Shown in pieces: positions 2,060-4,213 of a stretch of 4,612 bases of DNA (position 1 is the stretch's first letter; the number at the start of each line of letters is the position of its first letter). The translations under genes were made by a program, and so were the position numbers. The notes beneath the pieces were generated by a model. That model was not told the DNA's origin. It worked only from the letters and a program-made list of their open reading frames with translations, and made no database searches. Origin of the DNA: a virus (taxonomy: Duplodnaviria; Heunggongvirae; Uroviricota; Caudoviricetes); IMG/VR virus record IMGVR_UViG_2671181050_000008; one strand, 5' to 3'.

Positions 2060-2888
2060 GGTTTACCCCCTTGCTGACTGGCTTAACCTGCGCCCTGACG
2101 TGATTTACGTGACGGGCGAATTTCTGCTCCCACTGAACCTGCGTGAAAACTTTCCCCTCCGCTGCCCAGTAGTCCCGGAAAGCGGCAAGTTCAGCAGGTG
2201 TAAATTCCGGCTCCGGCAAAGCCATCCCCCACAACGCAGCCCGTCGTCGAAAATCCGGCGACGGATGCCAGTCATCGACCATCGGAAATTTCCCGATGGG
2301 TTCGCTCAGTCCATCCAGGGATGCAGGTTCTGCTGCCTGCAACGGCGTACCACTCGACTCACTGGTCGGAGCACTCTCGCGCACGTGCGCGTTATGTGTG
2401 GGGTTTAATTCTTTATCTGTATCTTTATCTGTCGTGACTCGTCGTGACATGTCGTGACATATGCGTGACTCGTCGTGACACCCCTCATTCTGTTTTCGTA
2501 ATTTTTCCCTCTCGCGCTGCGCTCTCTTGCGCTCTGCCGGGGATTTCGCGGTTTGTGAAACGTTGCCATTGTCCTCTTTCAGTACCTGGCGTTTTTCCCA
2601 TCCGGTGATTAAATCTCCATCAAGTACCCGCCCCTGCATTGCCTGTAAAATTGAATCAATTACTTCTTCCGTCACATCAAGCGCACTTGCTAAATCTTCC
2701 GTCGTGACATCAATGTGACCACGTAGTGACACGCCGTGACATGTCGTGACATTTCGTGACGCGCTCACCAGAAGGTGGATATACACTGCCATCACTGTTG
2801 CAATTGGCTGCCCTGACACCCTGGCAATTGTTCGCCACTTAGGGTCATTTGGCATGTCATGCCATAATCTGAGCCAGGCGTTAGCCAT
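1848..2888 (-). CDS. Phage replication initiator, O-like / YdaU-like replisome organiser (346 aa), carrying the origin iterons internally
   Basis: Track start at 2894 is GTG; ATG at 2888..2886 is preceded by GAGGTGA 4-5 nt upstream. Trp-rich N-terminal domain (AWLRLWHDMPNDPKW...GWEKRQ) followed by a Lys/Arg/Glu-rich linker. Sits directly upstream of the P-like gene and contains phased iterons, the lambda O arrangement. Occupies the ydaU position after the YdaS/YdaT-like genes. The C-terminal ~70 aa overlap the P-like start and may be a read-through extension. Confidence 0.65.
   Translation of the reverse strand: MANAWLRLWHDMPNDPKWRTIARVSGQPIATVMAVYIHLLVSASRNVTTCHGVSLRGHIDVTTEDLASALDVTEEVIDSILQAMQGRVLDGDLITGWEKRQVLKEDNGNVSQTAKSPAERKRAQREREKLRKQNEGCHDESRICHDMSRRVTTDKDTDKELNPTHNAHVRESAPTSESSGTPLQAAEPASLDGLSEPIGKFPMVDDWHPSPDFRRRAALWGMALPEPEFTPAELAAFRDYWAAEGKVFTQVQWEQKFARHVNHVRAQVKPVSKGVNHAAAPGGTASRAVQEIRAAREQWERENGFISDGNGLEAVGTHGGGLFEPLDPEERGRTFEALDCTDWHDD
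2403..2480. other. Candidate origin of replication: five phased iterons next to an AT-rich tract
   Basis: Iteron starts at 2431, 2441, 2451, 2462, 2472 (GTCGTGAC, one variant TGCGTGAC), spaced 10-11 bp. Adjacent tract 2403-2430 (tttaattctttatctgtatctttatct) is AT-rich with a duplicated CTTTATCTGT. In the gene's direction of transcription the order is iterons then AT-rich tract, as in lambda ori inside O. Confidence 0.6.
2701..2760. repeat. Second iteron array: six phased GTCGTGAC-like repeats
   Basis: Units start at 2701 (gtcgtgac), 2712 (aatgtgac), 2723 (gtagtgac), 2733 (gccgtgac), 2743 (gtcgtgac), 2753 (ttcgtgac), spaced 10-11 bp. Same core as the 2431-2479 array, about 220 bp away, inside the N-terminal coding region of the initiator gene. 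Confidence 0.6.
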
Positions 2889-2959: not shown

Positions 2960-3385
2960 TCAATGCACAGCCACAATATTTCCTGCAGGGCCACCACGAT
3001 TCATCTGGTTGAAACCAGCGATCGCCACTGCGACAAAATCATCAGCGTCTCTCACCAGTCGTTCCCGCGTCTCCACCAGCTCCCGAAAATAAGCTGAACT
3101 GTGGCTGCGCATTCGGGCCACCAGCAGAGGCGGCATTGCTTTTTCGATCGCTGGTAACAACGCCTGAATTTTTTTAACCGCATCAGGAGTGTCTTTCTCC
3201 ACCCAGCGGAAAATTTTCTGGGTATTGCGAGCCAGGGCTTCCGGATGGCTGTCGTCATATAATTCCGGGAACGTCATACCAAGCTCAAAATAAGCCCGGG
3301 TTATTTCAGCTGCCGGAACTTTTTCACCGTCCGGATGCGCCCAGGCATTCATCGCCATGCGGATGTGCTCATGCCTGATTTTCAT
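2960..3385 (-). CDS. ydaT: YdaT-like protein (proposed CII functional analogue), 141 aa
   Basis: ATG at 3385..3383 is preceded by GGAG 7 nt upstream. Start overlaps the end of the Cro-like gene by 17 nt. Size (~140 aa) and position between the Cro-like gene and the replication genes match ydaT of Rac-type prophages. Assignment is mainly by synteny. Confidence 0.65.
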   Translation of the reverse strand: MKIRHEHIRMAMNAWAHPDGEKVPAAEITRAYFELGMTFPELYDDSHPEALARNTQKIFRWVEKDTPDAVKKIQALLPAIEKAMPPLLVARMRSHSSAYFRELVETRERLVRDADDFVAVAIAGFNQMNRGGPAGNIVAVH

Positions 3386-3644
3386 GAATCAACTCCGATG
3401 CATTTGGTGTGTTAGCCTTGAATCCAACAGGTAAGCCGTCGGTTGGATTCGGGTAAATATCAGGCCGGAGTTCATGAGGTGTAACCTCGAAATTCGTTAC
3501 TTCAGCAACACGTAATGCTTTTTCAGGGCTGAATCTTTCATAGCCCCCCAGCACTCGACTTACATGCACCTGAGATAAACCCGTTAGCTTCCCAAACTGT
3601 AGCTGGGTGATATGTTTCTCTTTTAAATAGTCTCTTAAGTTCAT
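3369..3644 (-). CDS. ydaS: Cro-like HTH regulator, YdaS family (91 aa)
   Basis: Track start at 3650 is TTG; ATG at 3644..3642 is preceded by GAAGG 6 nt upstream. HTH segment (ITQLQFGKLTGLSQVHVSRVL) and C-terminal ELRPDI motif match E. coli K-12 YdaS as I recall it (CEELRPDIDW). First gene downstream of the divergent promoter region. Confidence 0.75.
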   Translation of the reverse strand: MNLRDYLKEKHITQLQFGKLTGLSQVHVSRVLGGYERFSPEKALRVAEVTNFEVTPHELRPDIYPNPTDGLPVGFKANTPNASELIHENQA

Positions 3645-3674
3645 AGCCAACCTTCTACGTTATGCCTCGAGCAA

Positions 3675-3751: not shown

Positions 3752-4213
3752 ATGAAAAAAACACGCGAAGTGATTGCAACTCCAGAAGCGAGCAAGAATT
3801 TAAAAGCCGCATGGAATGCAAGAAAAAAAGAGCTGAAGCTGACTCAAGAGCTGGCGGCTGAGTTGTTGGGATTCGAATCTCAAGGCACCGTTAGCCAGTA
3901 TCTGAACGGCAAGATACCGGTAAATACCGACGCTGCGCTAAAATTTGCGGCTCTGTTAAAGGTAAAACCAGAGGACATTCGAGAAGACCTTAAAGACTTA
4001 ATGAATTATGTAAGATCATCAGATACTTATGATGATAACTTTTCAGGCAAAGGATGGAGGCTGGTCAATGAAGAACAGGCAGAGTTACTTAACCTCTTCG
4101 AGATTCTACCTGCGTCAGAAAAAGCCAAACTCCTTAACCAGCTACGTGGACTAAACAAGCTCTACGAGGAAGCCTTCGAGAACATGCTGGCACTAAAGAA
4201 ACGTAACCAGTAG
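3752..4213 (+). CDS. CI/RacR-like HTH (XRE-family) prophage repressor, 153 aa
   Basis: ATG start. HTH segment LTQELAAELLGFESQGTVSQYLNGK. Divergent from the Cro-like gene across ~100 bp of promoter/operator DNA. Size close to RacR. No peptidase-like C-terminal domain is obvious. Followed by an intrinsic terminator. Confidence 0.75.
   Translation: MKKTREVIATPEASKNLKAAWNARKKELKLTQELAAELLGFESQGTVSQYLNGKIPVNTDAALKFAALLKVKPEDIREDLKDLMNYVRSSDTYDDNFSGKGWRLVNEEQAELLNLFEILPASEKAKLLNQLRGLNKLYEEAFENMLALKKRNQ

Follow-up and report, generated by a model that had tools for sequence, protein, structure and literature searches.

A Rac-like lambdoid prophage with a probable replication origin in its initiator gene

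Two iteron arrays and an AT-rich tract within one gene

The window analysed here is a stretch of 4,612 nucleotides from the IMG/VR virus record IMGVR_UViG_2671181050_000008, and it corresponds to the region for immunity and replication in an Escherichia coli prophage that is Rac-like and lambdoid. Its minus strand carries the gene of a putative replication initiator (1848-2888, 346 amino acids by the RefSeq start, with an open reading frame (ORF) reaching up to 2894), and a candidate origin of replication within this gene is the subject of the present analysis. Read in gene sense, the order is an array of short direct repeats or iterons (array A), 229 bp of intervening sequence, a second array of the same repeat (array B), an AT-rich tract and a GC-rich palindrome, GCGCACGTGCGC. 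An initial annotation, made from the sequence alone, had proposed an origin-like element at 2403-2480. This interval is part of the element but does not cover all of it, since array A, which was missed, also belongs to it, and perhaps the palindrome too.

A repeat scan placed array B at 2431-2479 on the minus strand, where five copies with the gene-sense core GTCACG (2431-2438, 2441-2448, 2451-2458, 2462-2469 and 2472-2479) follow each other at intervals of 10, 10, 11 and 10 bp. The exact sequence GTCGTGAC is found at 2431, 2441, 2451 and 2472 and the variant TGCGTGAC at 2462, in agreement with the five phased repeats (one of them a variant) described earlier. Array A (2701-2760), in the same orientation and upstream of array B in gene sense, has six copies (2701-2708, 2712-2719, 2723-2730, 2733-2740, 2743-2750 and 2753-2760), whose GTGAC ends fall at 2708, 2719, 2730, 2740, 2750 and 2760 (intervals 11, 11, 10, 10 and 10 bp). 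Given the recurrence every 10-11 bp, the iterons would lie on one face of the helix. Allowing for up to one mismatch, 11 matches to the repeat were obtained in the window versus 2.95 expected, a count that none of 200 shuffles reached, and the scan found no repeat cluster beyond arrays A and B in the 4.6-kb window. What the family of homologues, described below, conserves as its core is an asymmetric 6-mer, CGTGAC or, in gene sense, GTCACG, directly repeated every 10-11 bp, and the homologue alignment gives the consensus RR(T)GTCACG(M). The 8-bp near-palindrome previously taken as the unit is, by this comparison, a local accident.

The AT-rich tract (2403-2430, minus strand), our proposed DNA unwinding element, reads ACAGATAAAGATACAGATAAAGAATTAAA in gene sense, is made of AGATAA/AGATAC hexamer repeats and encodes TDKDTDKELN. 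Of all 30-mers in the initiator gene, the one with the lowest stability is located here (2404-2433, 77% A+T), with a nearest-neighbour free energy of -31.2 kcal/mol, compared to a mean of -41.2 kcal/mol (standard deviation 3.7) for the 30-mers of the window. The duplication noticed in the initial annotation was also confirmed, with TCTTTATCTGT present twice, at 2410 and 2422. As for the TTATC cores, which had been likened to DnaA boxes, the search for TTWTNCACA with up to one mismatch gave none in 2380-2500, the tract at 2403-2430 included, and six in the whole window versus 8.8 expected. On this basis, DnaA boxes in the AT tract were rejected.

Just past the tract in gene sense, the perfect palindrome GCGCACGTGCGC (2379-2390) might mark the boundary of the unwound region or form a hairpin; by itself it is not significant, as about one such palindrome is expected per 4.6 kb. 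A GCGC..GCGC symmetry is also seen at this position in four other loci (L014, L045, L005 and L001), where the encoded residues differ, and the presence of a palindrome after the AT tract goes together with a DnaT-type C-terminal module. Loci with other C-terminal modules, K-12 ydaU included, have CCCCC-N4-5-CCCCC-N-GGGGG (PPxxPPRG) at the palindrome position. Neither RNA structure at 2395-2490 (z -1.33) nor single-stranded DNA structure at 2360-2440 (z -1.17) was significant, and no known RNA family was found in the window. A promoter and terminator scan of the window gave counts near chance, its sole match near the element being the palindrome, which scored on the non-coding strand as a weak site resembling a terminator.

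The initiator itself begins with a winged helix, continues with a basic helix and a linker, and ends in a DnaT-like domain. In an AlphaFold model based on an alignment of 32 sequences, residues 1-100 (2589-2888, minus strand) are predicted to form a helical winged-helix domain (helices with a predicted local distance difference test score of 84-91), which is the proposed iteron-binding module, ends in a W-x-K-R-Q motif and resembles in its modelled fold the N-terminal domain of DnaD and the plasmid initiator 4pta. Array A encodes residues 44-66 and with them the modelled hairpin/loop of residues 46-60, where the seven extra residues of the window have low confidence and residues 49-54 appear as a low-confidence loop. 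A helix is likewise modelled for the basic segment at residues 117-135 (AERKRAQREREKLRKQNE; 2484-2540, minus strand), just before array B, and disorder is predicted from residue 137 onwards, in the segment encoded by array B (residues ~137-153) and the tract. If the model is correct, the origin would be threaded through protein segments that tolerate it, namely a loop and an inter-domain linker. The basic helix (AERKRAQREREK) may provide a second contact with DNA or contribute to specificity; at residue 124, GTCACG-type proteins have Q and those of the CGAACGC type (see below) have W. Helices of similar basic character were also observed ahead of GTCACG arrays in unrelated organiser-like genes.

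The C-terminal module is a DnaT-like single-stranded DNA-binding domain (PF17948, residues 203-269, E 9.6e-18; 2088-2288, minus strand). The match to the DnaT equivalog NF002770 is confined to the C-terminal DNA-binding part and scores 97 bits versus a cut-off of 201 bits, and the assignment of the initiator as a full DnaT (primosomal protein I) was rejected for this reason. No Pfam family was found for the N-terminal 110 residues, where the only hit was a sub-threshold Crp-like helix-turn-helix (E 0.022). In the same search, the N-terminus did not belong to Phage_rep_O and no significant match to PF09681 (Phage_rep_org_N) was obtained for the initiator. PHROGs labels the protein as 'replication initiation protein', with weak matches to replisome organiser and DnaD-like families, and the NCBI name for its close relatives is 'phage replisome organizer'.

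Conservation of the arrays and selection on the DNA

Homologues of the N-terminal domain were compared across 52 species, four phages and IMG/VR contigs, and 1007 protein clusters match the initiator N-terminus. The homologues span Gamma- and Betaproteobacteria and their phages, and nearly all of them (~50 related species and >80 viral contigs) keep both arrays; at an identity of ~56% or higher, every homologue has both, with unchanged positions in the gene. The hosts of the homologues at this level of identity include Enterobacterales (Escherichia, Shigella, Serratia, Rahnella), Bordetella, Chromobacterium, Aquitalea, Acidovorax and Pseudothauera, and Aeromonas and Pseudomonas phages are also among the carriers of both arrays. 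When the N-terminus was run by tblastn against a phage collection, no well-studied phage (e.g., lambda, P22, phi80) was retrieved, the matches being limited to uncharacterised ones such as Evi, Tritos, pAEv1818 and phita81A.

The geometry of the arrays is kept throughout the family, where 149 of the 151 intervals between iterons measure 10 or 11 bp and mostly 227-229 bp separate the final copy in array A from the initial copy in array B. Copy number varies, and close IMG/VR relatives have 4 or 6 iterons in array A and 4, 5, 6 or 9 in array B. When compared with Evi, Tritos and others, array A has two extra iterons in the window and in E. albertii, introduced by a 21-bp insertion (seven codons); growth in steps of 21 bp, equal to two helical turns and seven codons, meets both helix phase and reading frame. 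Array B was found in all GTCACG-type homologues and array A in most homologues. In every case an AT-rich tract comes directly after array B, and this tract still reads GTCACGCTAGATAAAGATACAGATAAAGATAAA in Pseudothauera with 69% GC, whereas array A has no conserved AT-rich neighbour. In three low-GC loci (L036, L037 and L049), array A is missing and a short array B is retained with a long (AGATAA)n tract, so that array B and the tract make up the universal core and array A is an accessory.

More distant homologues have no GTCAC and use another word instead, which is CGAACGC in eleven loci, GTAACG in four and TGTAACGC in one. The alternative word is phased and identical in both arrays. Since the replacement is shared, the arrays change in concert and follow the initiator lineage. 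A different arrangement was observed in two loci from Serratia and Pantoea (L051 and L058), where an insert after the winged helix (gene nucleotides ~330-700) resembles a GIY-YIG nuclease motif (YVYYVA...GISRNPWAR) and CTACGTA-type repeats replace the usual array B and AT tract.

Synonymous codons were shuffled within each gene, with protein and codon usage preserved. The 11 GTCAC of the window gene compare with a mean of 3.4 and a maximum of 7 in the shuffled versions (none of 500 reached 11), and a similar excess was obtained for nearly all homologues and for all three word classes. A period of 10-11 bp does not correspond to a whole number of codons, which speaks against a peptide repeat. 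Comparison of the window with phage Evi revealed compensating -1 and +1 indels within array B, which alter the reading frame over a few codons and leave the repeats in place. From the period, these frame shifts and the synonymous shuffles, a peptide repeat was rejected. For the tract, codon choice was analysed in 32 genes, with the (D[KT])n linker defined by the protein sequence. Aspartate is encoded by GAT in 120 of 122 linker codons versus 333 of 624 elsewhere (p 1.6e-26), lysine by AAA in 85 of 88 versus 273 of 518, and threonine by ACA in all 27 versus 92 of 503, and the bias persists among genes of 57% GC or more. The protein sequence accounts for neither the repeats nor the AT tract, and selection acts on them at the DNA level.

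The surroundings of the arrays are modular. Among GTCACG-type loci, the C-terminal domain varies and the downstream gene is P-like, DnaC-like or neither, and 18 such loci for which 1.5 kb or more of sequence was available upstream had no detectable YdaT, YdaS or CI homologue. As upstream, C-terminal and downstream modules all vary, the N-terminal part of the initiator is the sole constant partner of the arrays. YdaT, Cro and CI were rejected as repeat binders, given that they do not co-occur with the arrays. In E. coli, the initiator gene is a mosaic with its joint in the AT tract, where megablast matches cover either 2410-2950 or 1800-2414, and phage Rac-SA53 fuses a K-12-type DUF1376 N-terminus to the C-terminus of the window protein at ...GATAAAGATACAGATA... 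Most E. coli database records of the initiator protein (P0001-P0039) are labelled 'partial'; assemblies apparently break inside the gene, and the probable reason is that several co-resident prophages have one mosaic half in common.

The repeat word is also found beyond this family. Series of three GTCACG copies placed 10 bp apart are present in at least 120 IMG/VR viral contigs (L061-L180). In most of those listed the array lies in or beside a homologue of the initiator N-terminus, and about 30 of them have no such homologue. Among these 30, other organiser-like genes carry a single GTCACG array followed by a purine-rich tract (e.g., L087, L095, L099, L109, L120, L126), and seemingly intergenic arrays were observed as well (e.g., L066, L076, L085, L130, L142). 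One iteron word may serve several initiator families.

A probable replication origin and the alternatives

The origin-like element of the initial annotation is supported by conservation, co-variation of the words, selection at the DNA level and the N-terminal domain as constant partner. From this comparative evidence, we consider it quite likely that the element is the vegetative (theta) origin of a Rac-like lambdoid prophage, located within its own initiator gene. Transcription of the early rightward operon (cro-like, YdaT-like, initiator and P-like genes) would yield the initiator, whose N-terminal winged helix, possibly together with the basic helix, would bind the direct GTCACG iterons on one side of the helix. 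Array B (2431-2479) would nucleate a multimeric complex beside the (AGATAA)n tract at 2403-2430, the complex would destabilise the tract, which would then melt, and host DnaB would be recruited through the DnaT-like C-terminus of the initiator and the P-like loader. Array A (2701-2760) would be an accessory site for the same protein, acting either by looping stabilisation or in control. The asymmetry of the conserved unit points to head-to-tail binding and not to lambda-style dimers on inverted repeats.

Several points weigh against this interpretation. Initiator binding, unwinding, helicase loading and origin activity are steps that we infer from comparative evidence, and the window prophage may be defective. 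Judging by the three loci that lack it, array A is not essential to the family. The homologues are mutually related, so that counts across them do not represent independent events, and tandem hexamers can spread via slippage, which inflates the codon-bias statistic. Finally, since GTCACG arrays are also found in other organiser-like genes and in intergenic DNA, the word alone cannot identify the binder.

A more elaborate version, which we hold tentatively and regard as rather unlikely, is a bipartite origin in which arrays A and B are cis partners and their shared word allows a one-step switch of specificity. Here, initiator multimers could close a loop of ~229 bp (~22 helical turns), and specificity could switch among GTCACG, GTAACG or CGAACGC via the two word-identical arrays; if true, co-resident prophages would avoid firing one another's origins. 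In a stronger form, the hairpin residues encoded by array A could help to read the iteron, and site and reader would change together. The array A-encoded residues are indeed the only ones within residues 1-100 that separate the specificity classes, but this is expected because the iteron itself encodes them, and the existence of organiser genes without array A that also bear GTCACG arrays counts against the stronger form.

Among the rival explanations, the least improbable would see the arrays as control-only operators, bound by the initiator or another phage protein and acting as an autoregulatory roadblock that hinders transcription of the initiator and loader genes, or in copy control by pairing, with the origin elsewhere. 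Both arrays are inside a transcription unit and upstream of the loader gene, array A has no AT-rich neighbour that is conserved, and plasmid iterons are known to have a double role in initiation and control. However, array B always adjoins an AT tract under DNA-level selection, which a pure operator does not need, the layout matches that of oriλ (PMC7466680), and the 4.6-kb window, which is the part of the prophage scanned, has no other repeat cluster; we consider this explanation improbable. It is very improbable that the repeats are bound by a different factor altogether, either a host protein or a neighbouring YdaT, Cro or CI-like regulator. This possibility is suggested by the YdaT- and Cro-like DNA-binding proteins encoded just upstream and by GTCACG arrays beside other gene families, but it is at odds with the 18 loci without detectable YdaT, YdaS or CI and with the equally variable downstream partners, and a conserved host factor misfits a word that follows the initiator lineage across host classes.

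We give hardly any credence to the view that the repeats and the tract have no function as DNA and are by-products of low-complexity linkers expanding by slippage. Such an explanation would suit the disordered or insertion-tolerant segments encoded by both arrays, the copy numbers differing among close relatives (4 or 6 in A; 4, 5, 6 or 9 in B) and the fact that (DK)n-type linkers are common. It does not account for a 10-11 bp period that is not a multiple of 3, repeat counts above those of synonymous shuffles, repeats that persist while the frame shifts, extreme codon choice in the tract even in GC-rich hosts, or a word that co-varies between the arrays.

Known systems, prophage context and biological meaning

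The lambda origin has four iterons, 18 bp long and of inverted symmetry, with an O dimer binding to each, and a 39-bp AT-rich region where in-frame deletions leave the function of the O protein intact; O itself consists of a DNA-binding N-terminus, a flexible linker and a P-binding C-terminus (PMC6022878, PMC7466680). Like oriλ, the element described here is inside the initiator gene, and iterons are followed along transcription by an AT-rich tract that encodes a flexible inter-domain linker (PMC7466680, PMC6022878). As in oriλ and Shiga toxin (Stx) phages, the number of iterons differs between relatives (4 versus 6), and a P-family loader gene comes next in the window, a feature that is not constant in the wider initiator family. 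In contrast to the 18-bp inverted repeats of lambda, the element here has an asymmetric 6-bp core in head-to-tail copies with a 10-11 bp period, the N-terminus does not belong to Phage_rep_O, the C-terminus is DnaT-like, and a second array is present within the region coding for the DNA-binding domain. The initial annotation had drawn the same parallel of layout with a different design, and this holds for iterons followed by an AT tract within the gene, built on a 6-bp asymmetric core. The principle of an origin within the initiator gene is already known from lambda, whereas the initiator family and the iteron design differ from those of lambda. In the literature library searched, no paper or experiment on the origin of this initiator family was found, and recent surveys of Stx-phage replication regions make no mention of origins or iterons.

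Similar arrangements exist in other replicons. Organisers of the SPP1 G38P and lactococcal Rep type have binding repeats within their own gene. Theta replication of SPP1 starts at oriL (PMC5737612). The resemblance to these Gram-positive organisers includes the winged-helix 'organiser' type of initiator, the weak PHROG matches, the NCBI names of relatives and the W-x-K-R-Q motif; differences are the proteobacterial hosts, the absence of a significant PF09681 match, the P-like or DnaC-like partner, and repeat words and an (AGATAA)n tract that are specific to the proteobacterial group. In RepA_N plasmids, the origin iterons occupy a central position within the rep gene, between the DNA-binding N-terminal and the host-factor-binding C-terminal domains. 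This mid-gene position between domains is what our element has in common with RepA of the staphylococcal multiresistance plasmid (PDB 4pta), but these are plasmids of Firmicutes with other iterons and partner proteins, and no sequence relationship was detectable. The satellite phage P4 has octamer iterons at ori and crr, two separate initiator-bound sites, both in cis. Short iterons at two separate sites are a point of likeness, while the P4 sites are ~4.5 kb apart and the P4 initiator is a primase-helicase.

The Rac prophage has an active origin, oriJ (PMC3945230), and K-12 Rac has the same genomic slot as the window, with repressor, Cro-like, YdaT, initiator and loader. The AAAGATACAGATAAAGA tract at the domain junction is common to both. 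However, K-12 YdaU has a DUF1376 N-terminus, which is missing from the window protein, and a DnaC-like loader, and its gene has no GTCACG repeats, the tract being preceded by words of its own, TGTTCAAACA. In sequence, only the AT tract is shared with the Rac oriJ module, and with Rac-SA53 also the C-terminal module. Identity with K-12 oriJ was rejected, as N-terminal module and repeats differ. In K-12 ydaU (L002, ~2505-2640), we observed GTTCAAACA twice, together with an inverted TGTTTGAACA, just before the AAAGATACAGATAAAGA tract; these repeats and the tract may form the core of oriJ, combined with another specificity module.

Regarding the prophage, the window matches the strain 118UI chromosome at 99.9% identity, and phage Rac-SA53 reaches ~92% identity over parts only. 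A CI/DicA-like repressor gene (3752-4213) is on the plus strand, and the minus strand encodes, besides the initiator, a Cro/YdaS-like protein (3369-3650), a YdaT-like protein (2960-3385) and the lambda-P-like helicase loader (1394-1855 and 153 amino acids by RefSeq, with an ORF to 2059; PF06992, E 6e-16; phrog_109). DUF1627 and DUF977 genes are also present in the window. The initiator ORF (stop at 1848) and the P-like ORF (ATG at 2059) overlap by up to 212 nucleotides in different frames, and the RefSeq start of the P-like gene at 1855 removes part of the Pfam P match, which begins at residue 55 of the longer ORF. Since PHROG 15931 (482 amino acids) covers initiator and P-like protein as a single protein, fused or frameshifted forms of the two may exist.

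The element is widespread in E. coli. Of 5426 complete E. coli genomes, 2564 were matched in a megablast search with 1800-2950 (initiator and part of the P-like gene), 658 of them over at least 80% of the query, and O157:H7 strains are found among all the matching genomes. A definition at the sequence level, consisting of an array of GTCACG-type iterons, the (AGATAA)n tract and a GC-rich clamp, provides a testable map for prophage induction, copy number and the predicted cross-activation of co-resident prophages. It is also useful for the design of compatible phage-derived replicons and for the annotation of an N-terminal domain that has no Pfam family. As a general point, an origin can run through the parts of a protein that tolerate such threading.

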